A stretch of DNA of 64,000 nt from Nitrososphaerota archaeon. GTDB taxonomy: Archaea; Thermoproteota; Nitrososphaeria_A; Caldarchaeales; Calditenuaceae. Where the stretch lies: the NCBI GenBank assembly GCA_038845265.1, contig JAWBQR010000003.1:64001-128000 (forward strand), written 5' to 3'. Shown here piece by piece: positions 5,521-35,213 of this stretch (positions are counted from its first letter, which is position 1; each line of letters begins with the position of its first letter). The notes below the pieces were generated by a model that saw only the letters and a program-made list of their open reading frames with translations, searched no databases and was not told the origin of the DNA. The translations under genes and the position numbers were made by a program.

Positions 5521-5646
5521 TGGTCCCGGCGGCAGGATTTGAACCTGCGGCCCTCCGGTTTCTGTACGCCCGGTAGGCTGAAATAGGCCACAGCCTCTTG
5601 GCTGGCCTCTACAGCCGGACGCTCTACCAGGCTGAGCTACGCCGGG
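5521..5646 (-). tRNA. tRNA-Tyr(GTA) with 49-nt intron at 37/38 (intron 5560-5608), CCA encoded
   Basis: Acceptor CCCGGCG/CGCCGGG-A-CCA, anticodon stem TCCGG/CCGGA with CT-GTA-G loop, T arm GGTTCAAATCC, CTGT/ACAG central helix of a BHB motif. Confidence 0.93.
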
Positions 5647-10717: not shown

Positions 10718-11428
10718 ATGTTATCCTTGTTGGGGTTTAATAGGGAGTATTTGGTGCGGAAGTTTATTTTTTGGCTGAGCATTGCGTTGGTTATTGTCTT
10801 CTTAGTGTTTTTTGGGATGTGGATGGATTTTAACGAGGCTCAGAGCTCTATCTTGAGATGGATGAGGAGTGATCAAGGACTGCTTGATGGATTGTTCTGG
10901 ATTGCTGATAATACTGGTAGCGACGTGGTGATTATTGCTTGGTGGGACTACGGGGTGGGAATAGAGGAGATAAGTCATAGAAGAGTAGTGATTAGTGAGG
11001 CCTCTAGGGAGATTAAGTGGACGATTGCTGGAATGAGGAAATATCCATGGAGTTGGATAGAGTATGAGTTGTGGTATCCATTCGAGTCTGATGAGAGGGT
11101 AAGAGACGTGGGCAGATTCTTTAGTGCGGAAGACGCATCAGAGGCCATAGAGATAGCGAGGAAATACGGCTCTGAATATGTCTTCGTCGTCTATCCAGAC
11201 GATATAATGAAATTTTACGCAATGGTTATGGCAGCCGGCAAGCAGCCAAGTGAATATCTCGGAGAGTCTAAGGCAGATACAGAGGAAGAAATGATCAGGG
11301 AGATAGAGAGCCGCGAGATAATAAAAAAGGAGACCATCGGTATAAGACTGATATATGGAGACGATACGGAGGGCTTCGAGAAAGTATTTGATAATGGCAG
11401 AGTTAAAATATACAAGATAATAGAATAA
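10718..11428 (+). CDS. Stand-alone AglB/STT3 C-terminal globular domain with single N-terminal TM anchor
   Basis: VIIAWWDYG motif, DIMK (DxxK motif), AIEIARKYGSEYVFV, FEKVFDNGRVKIYKI C-terminus; only 236 aa. Confidence 0.75.
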   Translation: MLSLLGFNREYLVRKFIFWLSIALVIVFLVFFGMWMDFNEAQSSILRWMRSDQGLLDGLFWIADNTGSDVVIIAWWDYGVGIEEISHRRVVISEASREIKWTIAGMRKYPWSWIEYELWYPFESDERVRDVGRFFSAEDASEAIEIARKYGSEYVFVVYPDDIMKFYAMVMAAGKQPSEYLGESKADTEEEMIREIESREIIKKETIGIRLIYGDDTEGFEKVFDNGRVKIYKIIE

Positions 11429-11434
11429 GAATGG

Positions 11435-12064
11435 CTACTCGATTATGAATCTTTTTGGTTTGGGTATGAGGAAACTGGGCATTTTTTCCTCGAATTTCTT
11501 TATCTCGTCATCATATAGTGAGAGCGTGATTGATATGTCATCCAGACCCTTAACCAAGCGCTCCTTTATGTGCTGTTCAATCTCGAATCTAATTGATTCG
11601 CCTGTCGAGGTTGTTATCGTCTGTTCGGATAGATTAATGGTGAGGTAGAGCCTGCCCCCACGCGCCAGCTCTCTAAGGTTCCTAACCTTCTCTTGAGGCA
11701 GCCTAATGCATAGTAGCCCATTCTTAGAGGCATTGACGTAGAAGATGTCTCCGAACGATGAGGCGATTATGCTCTTGATTCCGAAATCCATGAGCGCCCA
11801 GACCGCGTTCTCCCTAGAGGACCCGATGCCGAAGTTCTTTCCAGCTATCAATATGGATGCGTCCCTGAATTCTGGCTCATCGAGGATAAAGCCGGGCTTC
11901 TTCGAGCCATCTTCATTATACCTCCATCTATAGAAGAGATACTTACCTAGCCCTTTCTTCTCTATTATCTTGAGGAACTCGGCTGGAATTATTTGGTCAG
12001 TATCGACGTCGTCAGCCTCTAATGGTGCAGCCTTTCCATGAATTACTCTTATTGGTTCGGGCAC
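11435..12064 (-). CDS. leuD: 3-isopropylmalate dehydratase small subunit (start GTG 12064 after GGAGGTGA)
   Basis: DVDTDQIIPAEFLK, NFGIGSSRENAVWAL, SFGDIFYVN, GLDDISITL. Confidence 0.93.
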   Translation of the reverse strand: MPEPIRVIHGKAAPLEADDVDTDQIIPAEFLKIIEKKGLGKYLFYRWRYNEDGSKKPGFILDEPEFRDASILIAGKNFGIGSSRENAVWALMDFGIKSIIASSFGDIFYVNASKNGLLCIRLPQEKVRNLRELARGGRLYLTINLSEQTITTSTGESIRFEIEQHIKERLVKGLDDISITLSLYDDEIKKFEEKMPSFLIPKPKRFIIE

Positions 12065-12071
12065 TGGTATT

Positions 12072-13526
12072 TCACCTCCACGGCTCCTCCAGCCTTGCGT
12101 TATGCTCGATCTCGCATAGGTCTGCCGGCTCAATCTCTCGAACATCGATGAATCTCCCCTCTATTGCCGCTGCAGCGGCCATTGCCGGGCTGACTAGGTG
12201 GGTCCGCCCACCTGGGCCCTGTCGGTTCTCGAAGTTTCGGTTCGAGGTGCTGGCGCACCGCTCGCCAGGCCTGAGCCTGTCGGGATTCATGGCGATGCAC
12301 ATCGAGCAGCCGGGATACCGCCATTCGAATCCTGCCTCGATGAAGATTCTGTGGAGCCCAATCCTCTCCGCCCTCCTCTTTATCAGCATGGAGCCCGGCA
12401 CGACCATCGCCCTGACGCCCTGCTTAACCCTTCTGCCCTTCACGATCCTCGCGGCATCGATTAGGTCTGAGAGCCTCGCGTTAGTGCATGAGCCTATGAA
12501 TACGACGTCTATCGGTATCTCGGTTATCTTCGTTCCGGGCCTGAGCCCCATGTAGCTCAGCGCCCTCTCGACCAGCAGTCTCTGAGCCCTGTCCTCATAA
12601 TCTTCCGGCGAGGGAACCTCGCCCGTGATGCCTGTAGTCATTGCTGGATTTATCCCCCAGCTAACCTGCGGCTCGATTCTCGAGGCATCAAAGACATACC
12701 TGGCGTCGTATTCGGCGGATGAATCTGTCTTAAGACTTGACCAGTACTTGACTGCTTCTTCCCATTCTTCTCCGTCTGGCGCGTATGGAGCTCCCCTGAG
12801 GTATCTGAAGACTTTCTCGTCTGGCTCGATGATTGCTGTCCTTGCTCCGCCCTCTATCGACATGTTGCAGAGCGTCATCCTGGACTCGACTGATAGCCTC
12901 CTAGTGAGTTCTCCTGTGAATTCTACTACGTGTCCAATCATGCCTCCTGTTCCTAGGTGTTTGATTACGTAGAGGATTACGTCCTTTGCTGAGACTCCTC
13001 TCTGTAGGTTTCCCTCGAGTCTAATCTCCATCTTCTTCGGCCTCTTCAGCCAGATTGTCTGCGTCGCGAAGACGTGTTCTCCCTCGCTCGTGCCTATTCC
13101 GAATGCAAGCGCCCCAAGCGCTCCATGCGTGCTTGTGTGGCTATCTCCGCATACCAGCGTTATTCCTGGAAGCGTCAGTCCCAGCTCCGGACCTATGACG
13201 TGTACGATTCCCTGCCATGGGCTGTGGTAGTCAAAGAGCGTTATGCCGTGCTCAGCTGCGTTTCTAGCGAGGGCCCTCATCTGCGCCGCTGAGAGCTCGT
13301 CAGTCACTGGGTGTGACCTATCAGTAGTGGGGACGTTGTGGTCCATCACGGCGAAGGTCAGGTCCGGCCTCCTTACTTTTCTCGACTTTTCTCTAAGTTC
13401 CTCGAAGGCTACTGGCGAGGTCACTTCATGTGTCAGGTGTCTATCAATGTAGAGTAATGCTTGTCCATCTTCCCTCTCCGCGATTACGTGTCCCTCCCAG
13501 ATCTTCTCAAATATGGTCTTAGCCAT
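12072..13526 (-). CDS. leuC: 3-isopropylmalate dehydratase large subunit (bacterial-type)
   Basis: LYIDRHLTHEVTSP, DHNVPT, CGDSHTSTHGA, GSCTNAR, PGCSMC, STSNRNFENRQG. Confidence 0.95.
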   Translation of the reverse strand: MAKTIFEKIWEGHVIAEREDGQALLYIDRHLTHEVTSPVAFEELREKSRKVRRPDLTFAVMDHNVPTTDRSHPVTDELSAAQMRALARNAAEHGITLFDYHSPWQGIVHVIGPELGLTLPGITLVCGDSHTSTHGALGALAFGIGTSEGEHVFATQTIWLKRPKKMEIRLEGNLQRGVSAKDVILYVIKHLGTGGMIGHVVEFTGELTRRLSVESRMTLCNMSIEGGARTAIIEPDEKVFRYLRGAPYAPDGEEWEEAVKYWSSLKTDSSAEYDARYVFDASRIEPQVSWGINPAMTTGITGEVPSPEDYEDRAQRLLVERALSYMGLRPGTKITEIPIDVVFIGSCTNARLSDLIDAARIVKGRRVKQGVRAMVVPGSMLIKRRAERIGLHRIFIEAGFEWRYPGCSMCIAMNPDRLRPGERCASTSNRNFENRQGPGGRTHLVSPAMAAAAAIEGRFIDVREIEPADLCEIEHNARLEEPWR

Positions 13527-13594
13527 GGACAGACCACCAAGGCTTCTCTCCTAAATATAAATCAGTCATTGCCTCGAACCTCTCTGTCAATGCT

Positions 13595-13741
13595 TTAACT
13601 CGATGCGTAGCGCTTGGGGTCTTTCTCGAATATTTCCTTGCATGCGGCTGAGCAGAAGTAGTATTTTCTGTGCTGGTAGTCCGAGACATATTTTGCTGTC
13701 TTCTCATTTACCAACATGCCGCAGACTGGGTCCCTAGCCAT
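13595..13741 (-). CDS. YHS/TRASH domain metal-binding protein (48 aa)
   Basis: Below the ORF-track cutoff; my translation is MARDPVCGMLVNEKTAKYVSDYQHRKYYFCSAACKEIFEKDPKRYASS (DPVCGM...YYFCS..C). Confidence 0.9.
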   Translation of the reverse strand: MARDPVCGMLVNEKTAKYVSDYQHRKYYFCSAACKEIFEKDPKRYASS

Positions 13742-13782
13742 GCCTAGGGGCATCCCCGCATCGTTTATTAAGGATTAATTAT

Positions 13783-14388
13783 TTACGTCTTTCTGTTGGC
13801 TGGCTCAAGCTTCTCGGCCAGCCTAGTCAGTATCTCCCTTATCTTTCTGAGCTCCGTCAGAGTCTCTTCTGGCTGTCCGAACAATGGCCTCGTCCGCACC
13901 CTGCTCAGTATCTTCTCCCTGAGTTCCTCCGGGTTGGTGACGTGGATTAGGCTGGCTTCTGCTCTTCTTGTCCCCGGCCCTGAGGTGCCTCCTGCCTGGC
14001 CGGTGTAGCCCGCGGTATGGACATCGACGGTTGCGTGTCCAAGCTTTCTCGAGATTGGCCCTTGTATTATGTCGACTGACATTACCCTAGAGTATGGGAC
14101 TGTATGCTTCATCTTCCACCAGACTCCACGCTTGACGACGATCTCGTCACTAGTTAGCTCGTATATAATCGAGTCATAGTATTTTGGCGCCCAGTAGGCG
14201 ACGAAGACTGCGGCGACCAATGATGGCAGAAAGAAGATTATTGCTGGGATAAATGCGAGTTCCGGTGCCTCTATCTGGACTAGCCATGTAACGATTATTC
14301 CTGCCACTAGTATCGGTGCTAGGACTATTGAGAGATAGATGTAGTACAGCGTCACCATCCTTCTGCTCGGCTTAAAAGTCTCGGACAA
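13783..14388 (-). CDS. Membrane protein with bacterial PH domain (bPH_2/YdbS-like)
   Basis: 2 TM helices followed by YELTSDEIVVKRGVWW..TVPYSRVMSVDIIQGPISRKLG. Confidence 0.85.
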   Translation of the reverse strand: MSETFKPSRRMVTLYYIYLSIVLAPILVAGIIVTWLVQIEAPELAFIPAIIFFLPSLVAAVFVAYWAPKYYDSIIYELTSDEIVVKRGVWWKMKHTVPYSRVMSVDIIQGPISRKLGHATVDVHTAGYTGQAGGTSGPGTRRAEASLIHVTNPEELREKILSRVRTRPLFGQPEETLTELRKIREILTRLAEKLEPANRKT

Positions 14389-17882: not shown

Positions 17883-18652
17883 TGTCGAGAGAGGAGAAGG
17901 CTGGCTACAGGCTGAATGTCTGGGAGACACTCAGAAAGTACGCACGACCAGACTCGAGGTTCCACTGGGACTTCTCCAAATTCATCCCAGACTTCAGGGG
18001 AAGCACGAGGTGCGCTGAGAGGATCAGACGCCTACCAGCATATAGGAGGGCAAAACTACTGTTCATAACTCCTGACAACTGTCTCGAGTACTTCAGGGAG
18101 CTCTGCATAAGGGATGGGAAGCGATTCCTCATGACGCCCTACGCTATTCGGAGAGACTTCTTCTACCTCGACCCGAGGAGGGTGCCGCGCGGAATGGAGG
18201 CCCTCGCATCGACGCTAGACGGAATCGAGCGATACGCTAGGCCAGTCAGTCTTAGAAAGATGATGAGGCTTGGACGCGTCGATATGTTGGTGACGGGCGT
18301 CTCGATCGTGAATACTAAGGGCGTAAGGTACGGCAAGGGTACTGGCTTCTTCGACATAGAGTGGGCAATCTTCAGAGAGCTCGGAATGGTTGATGACGAG
18401 ACTCCGATAGTTGCGGTTGCCCACGATTGTCAGGTCGTCGAAGTGGATTTTCCCTATGCCTCGCACGACACTATTGTTGACTACATTGTGACGCCGAGGA
18501 GGACAATCAGGGTCGAGAGGACTGAGAAGAAGCCACTGGGCATCGACTGGAGAATACTTCCACGAGAGCTGTTTGAGACTATTCCTCCACTCCAAGAGCT
18601 GGCGGAGCTCAAGGGTGTCAGGTACCCAGCCTCCAGTCCTGGAGATACTTGA
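17882..18652 (+). CDS. 5-formyltetrahydrofolate cyclo-ligase-like protein (COG0212 paralog)
   Basis: IPDFRGS, FITPDN, DMLVTG, GVRYGKGTGFFDIEW, HDCQVV, HDTIVDYIVTP. Confidence 0.85.
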   Translation: MSREEKAGYRLNVWETLRKYARPDSRFHWDFSKFIPDFRGSTRCAERIRRLPAYRRAKLLFITPDNCLEYFRELCIRDGKRFLMTPYAIRRDFFYLDPRRVPRGMEALASTLDGIERYARPVSLRKMMRLGRVDMLVTGVSIVNTKGVRYGKGTGFFDIEWAIFRELGMVDDETPIVAVAHDCQVVEVDFPYASHDTIVDYIVTPRRTIRVERTEKKPLGIDWRILPRELFETIPPLQELAELKGVRYPASSPGDT

Positions 18653-19931
18653 CCTGTCTCTCTGTCAGCTCCTCGATCTCTATCCCCATGCTCCTGAGCT
18701 TCGCCTTTGCTACTGCCTTGTCTATCTCTTCTGGGACGTCGTAGACCTTCTTCTCCAGTCTATCGGCGTTTCTTGAGATGTATTCGATTGAGAGCGCCTG
18801 GAGTGAGAAGCTTAGGTCCATTACTTCTGACGGATGTCCCTCGGCCGCTACGAGGTTCACCAGTCGGCCCTGACCGATCAGCAAGAGCTCCTTTCCGTCC
18901 CTCAGTATGTATTTCGTGACCAGGGGGGTTAATTCCTCGACCCTGACCGCCATCGATGCGAGGTCCTTGACAGATATCTCGACGTCGTAGTGCCCCGCGT
19001 TTGCGAGTATTGCTCCGCTCTTCATCTCTTTGAAGTGCTCCGCCCTTATGACGTCTATGTCTCCTGTCGCCGTTATGAATATGTCTCCGATCCTCGCGGC
19101 CTCCGTCATTTTTGTTACTCTGTAGCCATTCATCACGGCCATCAGTGCCCTCACTGGGTCCGCCTCGACCACTATTACCTCTGCTCCCATTCCCCTGGCC
19201 CTCATGGCTATTCCCGAGCCGACCCGCCCATATCCGGCGACGACGACTCTCTTTCCGGCGAGGAGTATTCCAGTGGCCCTGATTATTCCGTCGAGGGCTG
19301 ACTGTCCCGTGCCTATTGGGTTGTCGAAGAGAGACTTTGTCGGCGATTCATTGACGGCGAAGACTGGGTAGAGCAGCAGTCCCTGCCTCATCAGTGACTT
19401 TATTCTTACGACGCCCGTGGTGGTCTCCTCTGTCCCGCCCTTTATCGATGAGTATATCTCGAGGTCTCCGCCGATGGCCGCGGAGGCGTTCTCGACGTCA
19501 GGCCCATCCATCTTCCTCGCAATCTTGTGGACGATGACTGTTAGGTCTGCCCCGTCGTCGACCGTGATTGTCGGCTTAATCCTGAGGGCTCTCCCGATGC
19601 ATTCGTAGTACTCTCTCTGGTTCATGCCCCTGGCCGCGTATACTTTTATTCCGCTCCTTGCGAGTGCCGCCGCTACGTCGTCCTGGGTGCTGAGCGGGTT
19701 GGATGCGCATAGGGCGACTTCTGCTCCTCCCGCCCTGAGGGTCTCGACGAGGACTGCGGTCTCCTTCGTGACGTGTAGGCACGCGGCTATCCGCTCATCT
19801 CTGAGCGGCTTCTCCTCCATGAATCTCTTCCTGACCATTAGGCAGACAGGCATGAATCTCTCGGCCCACTCAATTTTTCTTCTACCCTGTCCTGCCAGGC
19901 CGATGTCTCTTACCCAGTAATCCATGCTCAT
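18618..19931 (-). CDS. ahcY: S-adenosylhomocysteine hydrolase
   Basis: ACLHVTKETAVL, SNPLSTQD, DDGAD, EETTTG, FDNPIGTGQS, GYGRVG, GHPSEVMDLSF. Confidence 0.96.
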   Translation of the reverse strand: MSMDYWVRDIGLAGQGRRKIEWAERFMPVCLMVRKRFMEEKPLRDERIAACLHVTKETAVLVETLRAGGAEVALCASNPLSTQDDVAAALARSGIKVYAARGMNQREYYECIGRALRIKPTITVDDGADLTVIVHKIARKMDGPDVENASAAIGGDLEIYSSIKGGTEETTTGVVRIKSLMRQGLLLYPVFAVNESPTKSLFDNPIGTGQSALDGIIRATGILLAGKRVVVAGYGRVGSGIAMRARGMGAEVIVVEADPVRALMAVMNGYRVTKMTEAARIGDIFITATGDIDVIRAEHFKEMKSGAILANAGHYDVEISVKDLASMAVRVEELTPLVTKYILRDGKELLLIGQGRLVNLVAAEGHPSEVMDLSFSLQALSIEYISRNADRLEKKVYDVPEEIDKAVAKAKLRSMGIEIEELTERQVKYLQDWRLGT

Positions 19932-20014
19932 CGATGACTCTCTCTATCGGCGGCTTAATAAAGAAGCTCTGGGGCAGTGTAGGGATTAATAGGAGGCATG
20001 GAGACCTATTTCTC

Positions 20015-29120: not shown

Positions 29121-30098
29121 CTATAGCCCGTACTCGCTAAGGATGTCTGATACACATATTGCTTTCTTTGTATTTATTGATTGGAGGATGGCCTCCGCCA
29201 CAGCCGTGGCCCTAGCACCTTCTAGACACCCCGGAGATAAATCCTCGTTTTTTCTTAAAGAGGCTACAAAATATTTCAACTCGTTTTTTAGAGGTTCTGA
29301 GTTTGGCGTCATTGGCATATAAGTTCCCTCCGATTTTTCTATGACTACCTCTCGACTTAGAAATTCTAAGTGAATTACACCTTCGGTCCCCGTGATTCGG
29401 AGGTCTCTTTTTTTCCGTGGCGTCAGCCAGTTAGCCTCAATGATGGCAGATCTCTCCTCCTTAAAGGTGATTAATGCCTGTATATAGTCTTCGTTAGAAT
29501 GTCTCAGAGAGCCTCCAGCAGCGTATACAAAGATGGGCTGAGGACCGAAAAAATACATCGATAAGTCGATATCATGTATTGATGTATCCTTTAATACTCC
29601 AATATCACCAATTCTCTCTGGCCATGGGCCGATTCTCCGTCCATAGATAAGTAGTGGTCTTCCAATTATACCACTCTCTAAAGAATCTTTTGCGACCTCC
29701 ACTGCAGGATTAAATCTCTCTATAAATCCAACCATAAGACGCCTACCAGACGATTTAACAGCATCGATGACTCTGATTGATTCATTAAGCGAGGATGCCA
29801 TCGGCTTCTCCACAAATACGTCCTTACCCATCAACAGTGCATTAATGCTGATCTCGGCATGGGTGTTGGAAGGGGTACAAATTGTCACCGCGTCTACATC
29901 ATCGCTCCGAAGGATGTCAAGATAGTTCTGAAATATTTTTGACACACCATATCTCTTAGCAATGTTTTTTGCACGTTCAAGATTTATATCGCACACCGCA
30001 GTCAAAGTAGCTCCCTCAAGCTCGGAAATTACCCTCGCATGATTAGCGCCCCAAAAACCTGTCCCAATGATGCCTATCCTGATGGGGCCGCTGTCCAT
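29121..30098 (-). CDS. Gfo/Idh/MocA oxidoreductase (nucleotide-sugar 3-dehydrogenase-like)
   Basis: IGTGFWG, VEKP, VGFIERFNPAV, DTSIHDID, ANWLTP.K.R. Confidence 0.9.
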   Translation of the reverse strand: MDSGPIRIGIIGTGFWGANHARVISELEGATLTAVCDINLERAKNIAKRYGVSKIFQNYLDILRSDDVDAVTICTPSNTHAEISINALLMGKDVFVEKPMASSLNESIRVIDAVKSSGRRLMVGFIERFNPAVEVAKDSLESGIIGRPLLIYGRRIGPWPERIGDIGVLKDTSIHDIDLSMYFFGPQPIFVYAAGGSLRHSNEDYIQALITFKEERSAIIEANWLTPRKKRDLRITGTEGVIHLEFLSREVVIEKSEGTYMPMTPNSEPLKNELKYFVASLRKNEDLSPGCLEGARATAVAEAILQSINTKKAICVSDILSEYGL

Positions 30099-30101
30099 TT
30101 T

Positions 30102-31226
30102 TTACTCACCAACTCCTACGTAGTCGCAGAGATTAATCACTACGACGCTCTTCCCCATAATAGACTTTACAGTATTTGCTACATATTTATTCCTAGTCGT
30201 TAATAAGACCACATCACATTTACCAGCATATGTCTTTATTCTTTCTTCAAACACCTCGGGCTTTGACCTTTGAAGTTGATGAATCACAAACTTCCTTGAA
30301 GAGAGCTCGCTCAATATTTTCAATCCATCCCCGACCACGAGTATTCTAAGCCTCTCCCTGCCTTTTCTAAGCCCATCCAGCAAATTTATGAGGTCCATCT
30401 CAGCCATCCTTGACATTCTATGAAGAGTCCGCATGATGCCTTTTCCCATCAAGAAATTTGACTCAACACTATCAATTATTTTGAGAACTGGATGCCCACG
30501 CCTCGCTATAAAAGAAAGCCTAACACCCCTACCAAGAAGACCCTTCAAGACTGCCTTAGGTGAGACCGATAATCTCCTAGTCAATAGGAGACTCTCGACT
30601 GTAGAAATTTCTATAGATAATTTCCTAATAAGTAGACTAATTGACGCGATCTCAGCCTCCAAGAGACTTAGACCGGAGACTATTCGTTTTCCATCAACAA
30701 TAGCCCTTACAATCTGAGCAGAACCCTTTGTTAGCCTCCCACCGACCGGTATACGGCCATCCAGCAGCAACGGCAATGGAAGATAAAGGAGAGTCCCGCC
30801 AGACGATGCGTCAAGATCAACCTCTCTCGTGACGAATTTAAAGAGTCTATCCATGAAGCCGGGAAAAGTAAGCCCAGTAACTATAATGGTCCCCCCTCTA
30901 TGAAAATTCTTTGCAACACTTTGGACCAGTCTTAACACGTCCATGTCTTTAAGATCGTTTCTCAACCCAGCCACGTATGAAATCAATAATGTCCCAGTTG
31001 TCCCAGCATCAATGTATCTGTTTGACTGTCTAAGTCTATTGCTATTTATTGAGTCCGCGATAAGCCTCACATAAGCAGGACTCAAGCATCTTTCCGCTAG
31101 ACGCGTTATTCTATATTCTCCACCTATAGAGTAGTACGTAACAGTGAAATCTTTCTTCAATAGCTTTATGGTTGGATATATCCCAGCACCATCAATATCT
31201 AATACCTCGACCACTCTTCTCTTCAT
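30102..31226 (-). CDS. Degenerate UDP-glucose/GDP-mannose dehydrogenase-like protein (start ATG 31226, ATGA overlap)
   Basis: Colinear but eroded family segments: DIDGAG (GxGxxG), TIIVTGLTFPG (ESTVPPG), PVGG, EAEIASI (AEmvK); no GGxC. Confidence 0.55.
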   Translation of the reverse strand: MKRRVVEVLDIDGAGIYPTIKLLKKDFTVTYYSIGGEYRITRLAERCLSPAYVRLIADSINSNRLRQSNRYIDAGTTGTLLISYVAGLRNDLKDMDVLRLVQSVAKNFHRGGTIIVTGLTFPGFMDRLFKFVTREVDLDASSGGTLLYLPLPLLLDGRIPVGGRLTKGSAQIVRAIVDGKRIVSGLSLLEAEIASISLLIRKLSIEISTVESLLLTRRLSVSPKAVLKGLLGRGVRLSFIARRGHPVLKIIDSVESNFLMGKGIMRTLHRMSRMAEMDLINLLDGLRKGRERLRILVVGDGLKILSELSSRKFVIHQLQRSKPEVFEERIKTYAGKCDVVLLTTRNKYVANTVKSIMGKSVVVINLCDYVGVGE

Positions 31227-31459
31227 TTCTCTCTCCTCGTTAAAACTCTGTAAAACCAGTAGTAAGCGAGCGCAGCCCACCAGGCAAGCCATAATCCAAA
31301 CAGCAACAGCGATGCAGCGACCCTCATTATGCTTGCCATTAGGTTTTCATAGACACCGCTAATTATTGGAAGAACGATAAAGCCGATAACTGCCAAGACA
31401 GCGATGAATGAGACCCAAATGATCGATATAAGGAGAATCGTGAAAAAGAGCGTTCTCAA
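31223..31459 (-). CDS. Small 2-TM hypothetical protein
   Basis: 78 aa, two hydrophobic helices, translationally coupled within the operon. Confidence 0.65.
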   Translation of the reverse strand: MRTLFFTILLISIIWVSFIAVLAVIGFIVLPIISGVYENLMASIMRVAASLLLFGLWLAWWAALAYYWFYRVLTRREK

Positions 31460-31463
31460 AGAG

Positions 31464-32447
31464 TCAAACCACCTGGTCGATGAACTGAGTCAAGACGGCA
31501 AGTATCGAGGAGTATAAGCAGACTATTCCCATGTAGATGGCGATCTGAACCTCGCTTCTAGGCCTATCAGCTGCAAGCATTCTGACTAATGTGAGAGGAG
31601 CGGCTGGGCTTAGATTTGACAATATTAAGTTGCCTGAGACCTTAATAGGTCTAGTAATGACTTGTTTACCTGATTTAAGGCCCCTCAATGAGACAAGGAC
31701 ATAAAACTCATTCATTATATGTGGAATTAAGGCAATGATTGCCACTACTTCAAGCCTAGAGGTGATAGCGATTCCAGCAATAACCGCTCCTATCAAGTTG
31801 CTGCCAGCGTTTCCACTAAATGCCCTCGCAGGGCACCAGTTGTATTTCAGGAAACCCAGCATAGAGGCGACAAGAATCATTGCCATCAATGAGACATCTG
31901 TTTTATTATTCATTATTGATAGTCCTGCCAACGTTAATAGTGGTGGAAGACTTGTAAGGACAAGTGATCCGTTGACGACGTCTAGACTATTAACAGCGTT
32001 CGTTACGATTGTATAGGCAACTAACACAAGTAATGGATAGAGTATCGTGATTCTGACCTGTCCTATGAACGGAAGGATCGGCCTAGGTTCATAGAGCCCG
32101 AGAAACACTATGGGAAGACCCGGCAATATGAGCAATAATGGTTTTAGGATCGGGTTTAGTTCTCTAAAATCCTCAATTAATCCTATGATTGCAGCTATTG
32201 CAGGCGCTATTAAAAAAGGTACGATAAGGTCGTTTCTTGATAATATGAGGAATATTCCTGAAGCTGCTAGGTAAGTGATTACTATTGCGAGACCCCCTAT
32301 GCGGGGAACTAAGGGGTGTCCGGGCTTATGCACATCTCTACCCAGTATTCCCCGTGAAAAAGAGAACTTGATAATTAATTTAGTTAATAATAGAGATGAG
32401 ATAAATGAGAGAAGGAATAAGCCCGCGAGTAGTATGATGTTCTCCAT
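31464..32447 (-). CDS. MraY/WecA-family UDP-GlcNAc:dolichyl-phosphate GlcNAc-1-P transferase (AglH/Alg7-like)
   Basis: GRDVHKP..P.VPRIGGLA, IGLIEDF, NAVNSLDVVNG, FLKYNWCPARAFSGNAG. Confidence 0.85.
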   Translation of the reverse strand: MENIILLAGLFLLSFISSLLLTKLIIKFSFSRGILGRDVHKPGHPLVPRIGGLAIVITYLAASGIFLILSRNDLIVPFLIAPAIAAIIGLIEDFRELNPILKPLLLILPGLPIVFLGLYEPRPILPFIGQVRITILYPLLVLVAYTIVTNAVNSLDVVNGSLVLTSLPPLLTLAGLSIMNNKTDVSLMAMILVASMLGFLKYNWCPARAFSGNAGSNLIGAVIAGIAITSRLEVVAIIALIPHIMNEFYVLVSLRGLKSGKQVITRPIKVSGNLILSNLSPAAPLTLVRMLAADRPRSEVQIAIYMGIVCLYSSILAVLTQFIDQVV

Positions 32448-32546: not shown

Positions 32547-33599
32547 ATGGACGTTTGGGTAGACATCCTCACACCGAAACAAGTATTGTATTTCTGGCCA
32601 GTCGTAGAAAAACTTAGAGACAAGGGCCATGAAGTATTAGTTACCGCACGGAGGTATGAACAGCTTGACTGGCTGATCAGCAGAATTAATCTGGATATAA
32701 AGGTAATAGGCGAGTTTGGAGGAGAGACACTATACGGCAAGCTCCTATCAAGTACTAGGAGACAACTCGAACTACTAGAATTATTCAGAGAAGATAAGCC
32801 TAGAATTGTATTATCGAGCGGCTCAATAGAAGCCTCCAGGATTTCATATGGATTGGGAGCGCGGCATATATTGGCTTCAGACACTGTTCACTCACCAGTG
32901 AATAGAATATGTGTTCCACTATCTGAATTAATCCTGACTCCACGCTTTATTCCAATAAAGGAGTGGCTGAGATATGGTGCAAAAAAAGGAATGATTAAGA
33001 GATATAGATCTCTCGATCCAGTCGCATGGATGAAGAGAATAAGTACTTTTCAGGAATCTTATATGGAAATTGACTTGCCGGAAAATTATATATTGGTAAG
33101 GACGCCGGAGAGTAAGGCATCATACATTCTTGGTAAAGGACTAGAGGAGGTAATTAAACTAATTAACATTATTACAAAACTTGAAGAATACAGCATAGTA
33201 GTGTTGACAAGATACAGAGAAGAAGCTAACCTTATTAGAGAAAAATTGCCCAAAGGCATAATTATAATTGAGAAGCCTATATTAGCTATTCCATTAATTA
33301 AAAAAGCGAGCCTTGTTTTATCAGGAGGCGGAACAATGACTCAAGAAGCAGCGCTCCTAGGTAAACCTACAATAATGTTTTATCCTGGAAAACTTCCAGC
33401 CGTGCATAGATTCCTAGCTAGGTTAGGACTAATAAAGAGGATTCCACCAAGCATGCTTCATAGGGTTCCCTATATTGCTGCTCAACTATTATCCGAAAAA
33501 TCGAAAAGTAAACTCGCCGCAAAAGCTGAAAAATTAATGAGGACACTCGAAGACCCAGCTGAGTTTATTTATCGATATGTTAATTCACTTCTGACATAA
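32547..33599 (+). CDS. DUF354 family GT-B-fold protein
   Basis: VWVDILTPKQV, GHEVLVTAR, VIGEFGG, VLSSGS, VRTPE, SGGGTMTQEAALLGKPTI. Confidence 0.88.
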   Translation: MDVWVDILTPKQVLYFWPVVEKLRDKGHEVLVTARRYEQLDWLISRINLDIKVIGEFGGETLYGKLLSSTRRQLELLELFREDKPRIVLSSGSIEASRISYGLGARHILASDTVHSPVNRICVPLSELILTPRFIPIKEWLRYGAKKGMIKRYRSLDPVAWMKRISTFQESYMEIDLPENYILVRTPESKASYILGKGLEEVIKLINIITKLEEYSIVVLTRYREEANLIREKLPKGIIIIEKPILAIPLIKKASLVLSGGGTMTQEAALLGKPTIMFYPGKLPAVHRFLARLGLIKRIPPSMLHRVPYIAAQLLSEKSKSKLAAKAEKLMRTLEDPAEFIYRYVNSLLT

Positions 33600-35213
33600 T
33601 TCTCTGAGAGTATCCTCTATGCTTAATAACTTGTCATAAGCGTATCTCAAGTCTTTTCTGAATGAATCATATATCTTCTTGTAGCTTTGCTGGCTTAATT
33701 CACCTTTCTGAAAATCTGTATAATTCCTCAGAATTACTCTCAATGCCTCACTAAGCACACCTAACGATGAGTTTATCTCCTTTGTTGTTTCCTGTATCTC
33801 GATTGTTTTTTCCTCTAGTTTTTCAATCGAGTTTATAACTTCATCAGCAATTCTGCGCACAACGTGTACCTTATCAGTCATAACTTGCGGTCTCGTCTTT
33901 ACAGCCGTGGGGGATAACCCATTCTCGATCTCCAGTAATATTGATCTCAACTTTTGTAATTCTTGTATAGCTTTTGAAATTGTCTGTAAATCCTTTTGAC
34001 TTATTATCTTAGTCCGCGGAAACTTACCGCGGATTACCTGCAATACGATGGCACTTAATATTATGACTACAAAGCCTCCGCCTATGATCCAAGAGGCAAG
34101 AGAAGCTGAGCTAGACGACTTGACCAATGGAAGAGTGATGTAATTGTTTTGATAGATATTTAGTTCTCTGCTCTCGATTCTTGCGATAGCTGCTCCAGCC
34201 TCGTCGTGATGATATTCAGCAACATTTGCATTTGTCATATCAACTTCGTATCCGGCTGGAAGAATTACAGAAATACTCAATGAACCGACTGTTGCATTTA
34301 TTGGTGTGAAGAGTAATATCTTCACTTCATCGTCATTTATGTACATTGTTTCTGGTGTCTGGCATTTTGCCAAAATTGTGAATGTGTATCTCCACGAGTT
34401 TTGGAGGGCATATCGTGACTGTTCAAGATTGACAGTGAGTATATTTTTTTCTTTGCTCCATGAGTAGGACAGCTTACCTAGAGTGTCTCTTACTTCCTTT
34501 ACTTCAATTCCATTGGGAAAATTTAGGTCCAACTGTCTCAGCAAGCTATTAGCTTGGTTCTTTATCCTCATCGTTATGACTATAATTGATTCTGAAGGCT
34601 CATAAGTCATGTCAAGACTTTCAACATGAATTAGAGATATTCCACTCGAGATTAGCCTAATTCTTATCGGATCTGGAATCGTATCACCAGAAATCGTGAT
34701 GTTGTTTTTCTCTAATCCACGATTAGTTAGTGTCCAGTCTGAGGGGGCACCCGGATATCTAACGTAACTCGTTGATGAGAAGAGTATATTTGCATGGACA
34801 GTCTGTCCCTGAATTAAGGGCTCAGCATTTATGACTAACTCGTAGTTATTTCCTCCCGCATCATATATTAATTCTCTATAAATTGCTGTAATTATCAAAT
34901 CCGTCGACTTGGGGTTTATCTCATAAATGTATAGTCCCGACGGTGACTTTTCTATGAATTTGCTTTCCCCGCCATTAACTACGAGTTGAACAAGTCGGTT
35001 ATGCATCTCTTCAACTATTCCAAACCTAAAGCTATCATCCGCTCCGTGAATCTTATCTACCACATATACCAGGCCACCGTTCTCCGGAATGATAGTCCTA
35101 TCAACCATAAGAACATTTTCCGGCCTAGCAGAGATAGGCATCAAGAAGATTAGCAATACCGCCAAGACCACGATGATCGGAATCCTCAATTTCTTATCCA
35201 AAGCTATAATCAT
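33585..35213 (-). CDS. Ribophorin I/Ost1-like type I membrane protein
   Basis: Signal peptide, beta-rich ectodomain, one TM (about aa 372-394), C-terminal helical bundle; motifs [24 protein letters not shown] and [11 protein letters not shown] match recalled RPN1 motifs in order. Confidence 0.65.
   Translation of the reverse strand: [542 protein letters not shown]

Follow-up and report, generated by a model that had tools for sequence, protein, structure and literature searches.

A 64,000-nucleotide stretch of DNA (hereafter the window) from a Nitrososphaerota archaeon (assembly GCA_038845265.1, contig JAWBQR010000003.1, positions 64,001 to 128,000) encodes, on its minus strand at 33585..35213, a protein that is almost certainly a genuine orthologue of the oligosaccharyltransferase (OST) subunit Ost1/ribophorin I (RPN1), in its long, RPN1-like form. 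Separate profiles for the external and the cytosolic part show that both halves of the protein are homologous to OST1/RPN1, and Ost1/RPN1 chains are its top fold matches. We consider it probable that the protein serves as a non-catalytic partner of AglB, the single oligosaccharyltransferase of the organism.

Domain architecture of the Ost1-like protein

The initial annotation had described an open reading frame (ORF) at this position with a signal peptide, a beta-rich ectodomain, a single transmembrane helix (TMH), and a cytosolic helical bundle. The ORF is present with these limits, and all four elements are seen in an AlphaFold model built from 32 diverse relatives, which has a predicted local distance difference test score (pLDDT) of 88.0, a predicted template modelling score of 0.64, and 346 of the 542 residues at pLDDT 90 or above. 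This model replaces a first one built from nine close sequences (pLDDT 64). The ORF and its parts are as follows.

33585..35213, minus strand: Ost1/ribophorin I homologue, whole ORF, 542 amino acids plus stop, ATG start (ORF; Pfam PF04597; Ost1/RPN1 chains as top fold matches)
35127..35213, minus strand: residues 1–29, signal peptide or N-terminal hydrophobic helix, with likely cleavage after ISA (helix 7–23 in the model)
34644..35126, minus strand: residues 30–190, first (membrane-distal) external beta-sandwich domain (pLDDT above 90; aligned to the N-terminal lumenal domain of Ost1/RPN1)
34110..34643, minus strand: residues 191–368, second (membrane-proximal) beta-sandwich domain (Pfam match at 218–322; profile match to yeast Ost1 residues 288–395)
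34032..34109, minus strand: residues 369–394, single TMH (helix in the model; hydrophobic segment at the same position in 16 of 16 relatives)
33588..34031, minus strand: residues 395–542, basic four-helix bundle in the cytosol, a homologue of the Lokiarchaeal OST1 domain that binds ribosomes (four helices within 406–541; profile match to 8whn_A)

The sequence ISA|RP directly follows the N-terminal hydrophobic helix, and comparable small-residue sites are found in the relatives. The N-terminal lumenal domain of the Ost1/RPN1 chains aligns to the window protein from residue 28–30 onwards. Model strands span residues 35–188 in the first beta-rich domain and 194–365 in the second, which holds the conserved DxLG and R267 motifs (conserved columns D243, G246, and R267) and the predicted contact surface with AglB. 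The cytosolic part is made of four long helices (406–433, 442–464, 471–502, and 508–541). Its isoelectric point (pI) is 9.0, against 5.0 for the acidic ectodomain, and the corresponding tails are basic in 16 of 16 relatives (pI 8.6–10.7). The model thus predicts a type I layout, with a signal peptide, two non-cytosolic beta-sandwich domains, and one C-terminal TMH.

Sequence homology to Ost1/ribophorin I

The Pfam model Ribophorin_I (PF04597) matches residues 218–322 of the window protein with 25.9 bits (E 6.7e-6), just above the cut-off of 25, in a check that the initial annotation had proposed; a scan of the whole genome finds one copy, at 26.6 bits. The four segments presumed in that annotation to correspond to human RPN1 all fall within the same residues. 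As the Pfam match is too marginal alone, independent support was sought. PF04597 matches 12 of the 32 members of the protein's own family at E≤0.01. A relative from another taxonomic family reaches 39.7 bits with a match that extends to the model end, and 11 of 13 members from elsewhere in the phylum, outside the class, score 30.6–52.6 bits. The N-terminal half of the model is covered as well, by relative L035 (model positions 5–228). None of 14 control genomes contains a PF04597 match.

A profile restricted to the ectodomain (10 sequences) yields four matches at E≤10 among 177,635 PDB sequences. The best is yeast Ost1 (listed as dolichyl-diphosphooligosaccharide--protein glycosyltransferase subunit 1; E 5e-5, residues 288–395), followed by a match at 0.081. 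The part of the profile that aligns to yeast Ost1 corresponds to the Pfam-matched stretch of the window protein, and the alignment runs through the motifs LLPxGA, DxLGxxS, RxxxxxGxxxxFTV, and LPxG. For the cytosolic domain, a profile of 16 sequences drawn from the whole phylum matches 8whn_A over the whole domain, with E 1.9e-19 and 73 bits. According to PMC11417166, 8WHN is the cytoplasmic domain of OST1 from the Lokiarchaeon MK-D1; its four helices are bundled as in human OST1, and it pulled down ribosomes.

The next PDB matches of the cytosolic-domain profile are to the archaeal cell-division protein CdvA (9s9g_A, E 1.2e-6; 9s9i_A, E 3.3e-6), matches that may reflect either coiled-coil composition or a real relationship.

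Structure comparison

A Foldseek search of the PDB with the model returns eight chains of human and yeast OST complexes at the top (8b6l_O, 8pn9_E, 6s7o_E, 6s7t_E, 7oci_A, 8agb_E, 6ezn_A, and 6c26_1), with E values from 8.9e-23 to 2.0e-15. Among other folds the N-domain of M1 aminopeptidases follows, starting at 5.9e-7, and the poorer first model gives the same order. A second structure search, independent of Foldseek and covering 48,161 chains, places 6s7o_E first (Z score 24.9, 481 residues aligned, chain residues 29–594) and 6c26_1 second (Z 22.0, root mean square deviation (rmsd) 5.5 over 348 residues). Altogether, the eight OST chains reach Z 22.0–25.0 over 344–491 residues, compared with Z 13.9 over 163 residues for LTA4 hydrolase. 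The OST chains therefore rank far above the M1 peptidase N-domains, and the better match to such domains or to S-layer proteins that the initial annotation had envisaged as the contrary outcome is not found. The human chains are taken to be RPN1 from their residue ranges (28–607) and from the 607-residue human OST1 given in PMC11417166, while the yeast chains are named Ost1 through the sequence match of the ectodomain profile.

Distribution in the class and phylum

The window belongs to a genome of 1.37 Mb that is 93% complete, and DNA of the organism is present in hot-spring metagenomes of eight studies. In the class, 71 of 76 genomes carry the Ost1-like family as a single copy (41 of 43 when only high-quality genomes are counted), and so do 15 of 15 genera. 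The gene is almost always a single full-length ORF of 514–576 amino acids and hence not a chance ORF. In a sample of the whole phylum, 215 of 401 genomes and 98 of 158 genera carry the family. A homologue search with a phylum-wide alignment returned the same nine close relatives, and all public records of family members that bear a real name read 'hypothetical protein'. In a tree of 16 sequences the four members of the window's class cluster together (96/97), at a join where long branches meet.

The tail that follows the TMH is 148–160 amino acids long at 15 of the 16 loci examined. The exception, L036:6010-7254 of genome G082 in family f11, retains the external domains and the TMH and has a tail of 25 amino acids; the other f11 ORFs have about 424–454 amino acids. 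The short forms, of about 415–454 amino acids, are nearer in layout to the solved yeast Ost1 chains than to RPN1.

Predicted interface with AglB

AglB is encoded by one gene on contig 12 of the same genome. It has 704–705 amino acids, an STT3 match at 3e-38, and the WWDYG motif, and it is a single-copy protein in 42 of 43 high-quality genomes of the class. We predicted a complex of full-length AglB (alignment of 30 sequences) with residues 190–402 of the Ost1-like protein (alignment of 32), that is, with its membrane-proximal domain and TMH. The prediction, a check that the initial annotation had proposed, passes with a score of 0.74 (runs 0.72, 0.76, and 0.74), against 0.00 for the best of three controls. 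At least 63% of the contacts are common to the runs, and the pLDDT of the partner is at least 76.

The predicted interface comprises 17 residues of the Ost1-like protein (216, 243–247, 267–268, 274–277, 320, 337–339, and 341). On the side of AglB, contacts are predicted at residues 50–52, 72, 112–124, and 494–538, which flank the WWDYG motif at about 528. The interface contains three of the eight most conserved columns of the domain (D243, G246, and R267), where 0.64 would be expected (P 0.019). These eight columns, conserved across the phylum, were listed before the prediction was run, and their overlap with the interface is independent of the confidence of the model. The model supports, without showing, the binding of the Ost1-like protein to AglB.

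Other OST subunits

The initial annotation had suggested a eukaryote-like, multi-subunit OST. Its Ost1 part is borne out, with an interface to AglB that is predicted, and the full eukaryotic set is not: models for Ost5/TMEM258 (PF05251), DAD1/Ost2 (PF02109), and OST48/Wbp1 (PF03345) have no match at E≤1 in this 93% complete genome, in a search in which short transmembrane proteins are hard to detect. The complex would thus be at most a three-part one.

A candidate for the third part lies outside the window, divergently oriented beside AglB on contig 12. It encodes a very hydrophobic protein of about 125 amino acids that consists of transmembrane segments and lacks a thioredoxin domain.

G000 contig 12, L042:3724-4101 (= L004:1429-1809), plus strand: mini Ost3/6-like protein, outside the window, back to back with AglB

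Three of the class's four families have the gene beside AglB, and its product has invariant G, FxP, QT, E, and YY positions. Nine of nine members match the transmembrane region of OST3_OST6 (PF04756) at E≤1, the best at 8e-6, and the copy of the window genome scores 12.7 bits against a cut-off of 27. A profile of the mini protein has no match at E≤1 among PDB sequences. The mini protein occurs in 59 of 63 class genomes and, in the phylum sample, in 129 of 401. Seventeen of 30 itemised families carry it, all of which also carry the Ost1-like protein, and families f6, f19, and f20 have neither. Of the 61 genomes of family f5, two have the Ost1-like protein and none has the mini protein; in family f10 Ost1 is found in 13 of 14, with the mini protein undetected. 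This co-occurrence is supportive only, since relatedness makes the genomes non-independent samples and so short a profile has low sensitivity. The protein may be a minimal Ost3/6 subunit or an Ost3/6 remnant.

In genus g7 of family f4 (L052-L056, L058, L060, and L061), a secreted protein of about 446 amino acids, rather than the mini gene, stands divergently beside AglB. The mini Ost3/6 gene of this genus lies about 2 kb from AglB in G021 and G030 and about 32 kb away in G024. A separate OST3_OST6 match of 24 bits on contig 5 of the window genome was discarded as a plain soluble thioredoxin, and the same search matches 12 of 14 control genomes.

Two further proteins of the window had been put forward as possible OST subunits, and neither proposal is supported. 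One, at 10718-11428 on the plus strand, has 236 amino acids, one N-terminal TMH, and an AWWDYGVG motif, and lacks the 13-TMH catalytic domain. It matches residues 499–552 of AglB (BLASTP E 3e-5). In the atlas it has archaeal proteins of 220–300 amino acids as neighbours, and some of these clusters carry STT3-PglB_core. It is a stand-alone, single-TMH copy of the AglB core domain. The other is the small transmembrane protein at 31223, which we considered as an Ost5-like subunit; it matches no family, the genome has no Ost5 match, and the protein is a conserved member of the AglH cluster described below.

Gene neighbourhood

The Ost1-like gene is adjacent to the following genes of the window.

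32547..33599, plus strand: DUF354 protein of glycosyltransferase B type, weakly like UDP-N-acetylglucosamine (UDP-GlcNAc) 2-epimerase (Pfam DUF354 6.9e-49; weak wecB match)
31464..32447, minus strand: AglH-type polyprenyl-phosphate GlcNAc-1-phosphate transferase, Glycos_transf_4 (Pfam PF00953 8.1e-30)
31223..31459, minus strand: small two-TMH protein of the AglH cluster (ORF; position and sequence kept in three other genomes)
30102..31292, minus strand: conserved cluster protein of 374–396 amino acids with a predicted nucleotide-sugar dehydrogenase-like fold (atlas structure matches)
29121..30098, minus strand: GFO/IDH/MocA oxidoreductase resembling UDP-GlcNAc 3-dehydrogenase (Pfam; NCBIfam NF040723, 282 bits, cut-off 450)

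The DUF354 and Ost1-like genes converge and have 15 nucleotides in common at their 3' ends, an arrangement shared by L013, L014, and G029. The overlap noted in the initial annotation, and its placement in an aglH cluster, are thereby confirmed. The AglH-type protein also has NCBIfam matches of MraY/WecA type, below their cut-offs. The small two-TMH protein has no Pfam or NCBIfam family match; its identity across families is 29%, with invariant W15, P31, E38, R46, W57, W61, W68, and Y70. No significant Pfam family is found for the protein at 30102-31292. In the atlas it resembles the UDP-glucose/GDP-mannose dehydrogenase family (template modelling score 0.74–0.80 over 343–370 residues), and its relatives start about 22 codons downstream of the start of the longest ORF.

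The order Ost1-like, DUF354, AglH-type, small two-TMH protein, 374–396-residue protein, GFO/IDH/MocA oxidoreductase, and MtnA-like is identical in four genomes, namely that of the window, its close relatives L013 and L014, and G029 from another family, and hence in at least two families. Between the window and G029, Ost1 identity is only about 22–24%. Since these conserved neighbours have sugar-nucleotide likeness, the gene sits, in this class, at the edge of a glycan-precursor cluster.

The idea that the DUF354 protein might be the chitobiose synthase Agl24 was rejected. The protein starts MDVWVDILTPKQ and has no GGH motif. In Meyer et al. 2022 (PMC8993221), Agl24 is an archaeal Alg13/14-like enzyme with an N-terminal GGH motif and an essential His14, and no Pfam family is named.

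Other features of the window

No rRNA gene is found in the 64,000 nucleotides. On the minus strand at 5524-5646, a tRNA match extends over 123 bases for a 71-position model, suggesting an intron-containing tRNA gene. The GC content is raised to 0.54–0.55 at 12001-14000 and 18001-20000, compared with a background of about 0.40–0.45. The segment 24001-26000 has an unusual composition, with a GC content of 0.506, a GC skew of -0.40, and an AT skew of +0.34.

Proposed function and alternative explanations

We propose that the Ost1-like protein is a type I membrane protein, with two beta-sandwich domains outside the cell, one TMH, and a basic cytoplasmic four-helix bundle, and that it serves AglB, the single oligosaccharyltransferase, as a non-catalytic partner. 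With its DxLG and R267 surface, the membrane-proximal beta domain would lie against external loop 1 of AglB and the stretch just before WWDYG, a contact that we regard as probable. The cytosolic bundle would dock ribosomes at the SecYEG channel during translation, which would allow nascent chains to be glycosylated while emerging. For ribosome binding, and with it a link of AglB to translating ribosomes, we see even odds, and we infer an effect of the protein on N-glycosylation. A more tentative extension, which we hold to be somewhat below even odds, is that many Thermoproteota, including the whole class, have a three-part OST made of AglB, Ost1, and a transmembrane-only Ost3/6, with the tail of Ost1 docked to ribosomes at SecYEG.

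A true Ost1 homologue might instead act without AglB, as a ribosome receptor or chaperone at SecYEG that holds nascent secreted proteins, the tie to glycosylation having come later, in the Asgard–eukaryote line. Such a role would suit a protein whose strongest single sequence link is the ribosome-binding domain in the cytosol, whose gene never adjoins AglB, and whose gene neighbours outside the class are unrelated to glycosylation. We nevertheless consider it unlikely, given that the predicted interface with AglB (0.74 against 0.00) falls on the most conserved external residues of the family and that the external domains are as conserved as the tail. Family f11, moreover, retains the external domains and the TMH without the tail, which argues for a role of the external part in its own right, and in this class the gene sits within the glycan-precursor cluster. 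That location, preserved next to DUF354 and AglH in four genomes despite the low identity of the Ost1 proteins, and the overlapping 3' ends of the Ost1-like and DUF354 genes would also fit a protein that helps AglH, DUF354, and the sugar-nucleotide enzymes to build or flip the lipid-linked glycan, rather than one that takes part in the transfer step. This explanation is improbable, however, as most of the protein is either extracellular or a ribosome-type cytosolic bundle, the linkage to DUF354 and AglH is absent at 13 of 13 loci outside the class, and a role of Ost1/RPN1 in lipid-linked glycan synthesis was not found in the sources used. It is hardly credible that the protein is no Ost1 relative and is instead a generic surface protein, of beta-sandwich or S-layer type, with a mere resemblance in fold to Ost1 and the N-domains of M1 peptidases. 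The marginal Pfam score and the match of M1 peptidase N-domains to each beta domain (Z 13–14) would agree with it, but two independent sequence profiles specifically match OST1 proteins, the match to Ost1/RPN1 extends over the whole chain (Z 22–25, against 163 aligned residues for the peptidases), and the order of domains, TMH, and tail is the same as in RPN1.

Several observations weigh against a partnership of the Ost1-like protein with AglB or against the homology on which it builds. The Pfam score of the window protein is itself close to the cut-off. Full-length profiles found no Ost1/RPN1 among PDB sequences (one gave 0 matches at E≤10 and another coiled-coil noise only, with 8whn_A at E 0.016), and phmmer with the G029 protein gave 0 matches; splitting the protein into ectodomain and tail profiles resolved this failure. 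Four-helix folds are common, and unrelated helical bundles reach Z 15, compared with Z 11.3 for the RPN1 tail in 6fti_1; the cytosolic domain is therefore identified by its sequence match rather than by its fold. AglB is never adjacent to the Ost1-like gene and is far from it wherever both are on one contig. Outside the class, STT3, AglH, or DUF354 occurs within about 6 kb at 0 of 13 loci, where the neighbours are, for example, glycine cleavage genes, DNA polymerase D, and DUF2095. In the phylum sample, 186 of 401 genomes have no match to the family. Sulfolobus acidocaldarius, one of the control genomes, has STT3 and no PF04597 match, and AglB can therefore work without an Ost1-like protein. 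The lack of matches to Ost5, DAD1, and OST48 belongs here as well. The mark that the complex score passes is reached by 58 of 80 solved complexes and by 2 of 110 mismatched pairs, a calibration that is only rough, because we used our own alignments. The pass itself may reflect a memory of solved eukaryotic OST structures, in which case it would show likeness only. A weak further point concerns expression. Short contigs from two RNA-Seq runs of one study cover parts of the gene at 98% identity or more (X19, 33598-33758 and 34901-35164; X20, 34567-34784), and give a hint only, with low read depth and no control for DNA carry-over or for a silent stretch; stretches of the cluster without RNA-Seq cover are uninformative.

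Relation to previous reports and significance

Archaeal AglB is usually regarded as a single-subunit enzyme, and Ost1/ribophorin I is usually counted among the eukaryotic signature proteins of Asgard archaea. The novelty of an Ost1 homologue in this lineage is smaller than the initial annotation assumed: in Carilo et al. 2024 (PMC11417166), one sentence already puts OST1 and OST3/6 in archaea of the Thaumarchaeota, Aigarchaeota, Crenarchaeota, and Korarchaeota (TACK) group. We found no further literature on Ost1 outside Asgard archaea beyond this paper, whose supplements may list TACK sequences. Lombard 2016 (PMC4973528) reports that prokaryotic homologues of non-catalytic OST subunits were not found, Eme et al. 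2023 (PMC10307638) mention prokaryotic Ost1 and Ost3 only as earlier Asgard reports and add further subunits, and Meyer et al. 2022 cite Asgard reports. The present analysis extends the published sentence in four ways: the family is spread widely among TACK archaea, its ribosome-type tail is conserved, the interface predicted with AglB falls on conserved residues, and a candidate Ost3/6 remnant lies beside AglB.

These results suggest that the helper subunits of OST arose earlier, and are distributed more widely among archaea, than is commonly stated. Were the complex of AglB and Ost1 real, it would provide a minimal multi-subunit OST within reach of experiment and would move the origin of accessory subunits deeper into the archaea. 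If the three-part OST exists, co-translational N-glycosylation and the core architecture of OST-A would predate the Asgard–eukaryote lineage, and Ost1 would not be an Asgard-specific eukaryotic signature protein.

Comparison with known systems

The N-domains of M1 aminopeptidases (LTA4 hydrolase, ERAP1/2, and IRAP) share the fold of each beta domain of the window protein, with an rmsd of about 3.1–3.5 over about 160 residues. In contrast to Ost1/RPN1, they match one domain at a time and have no sequence match, and the window protein lacks their catalytic domain.

Yeast Ost1 (6C26, 6EZN, 7OCI, and 8AGB) aligns with Z 22.0–24.4 and an rmsd of 5.2–5.7 over 344–351 residues. The solved yeast chains end at about residue 476, soon after the TMH and without a cytosolic bundle, whereas the bundle of the window protein has about 148 amino acids.

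Human RPN1 in OST-A and OST-B (8B6L, 6S7O, 8PN9, and 6S7T) has the same full architecture as the window protein, with Z 24.7–25.0 over 356–491 aligned residues, and residues 438–607 of 6fti_1 align to its TMH and bundle. The two proteins are 12–14% identical. RPN1 resides in the endoplasmic reticulum and the archaeal protein in the cell membrane, and the RPN1 partners Ost5/TMEM258, DAD1, and OST48 are those not found in the window genome.

The closest counterpart of the cytosolic domain is that of OST1 from the Lokiarchaeon Candidatus Prometheoarchaeum syntrophicum MK-D1 (8WHN). MK-D1 is an Asgard archaeon, whereas the window organism belongs to the Nitrososphaeria/Aigarchaeota branch of TACK. 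The MK-D1 domain, which the tail of the window protein resembles in sequence, bound human ribosomes, according to PMC11417166. The two domains are clearly homologous and align end to end, so that an RPN1-type tail is present in both.

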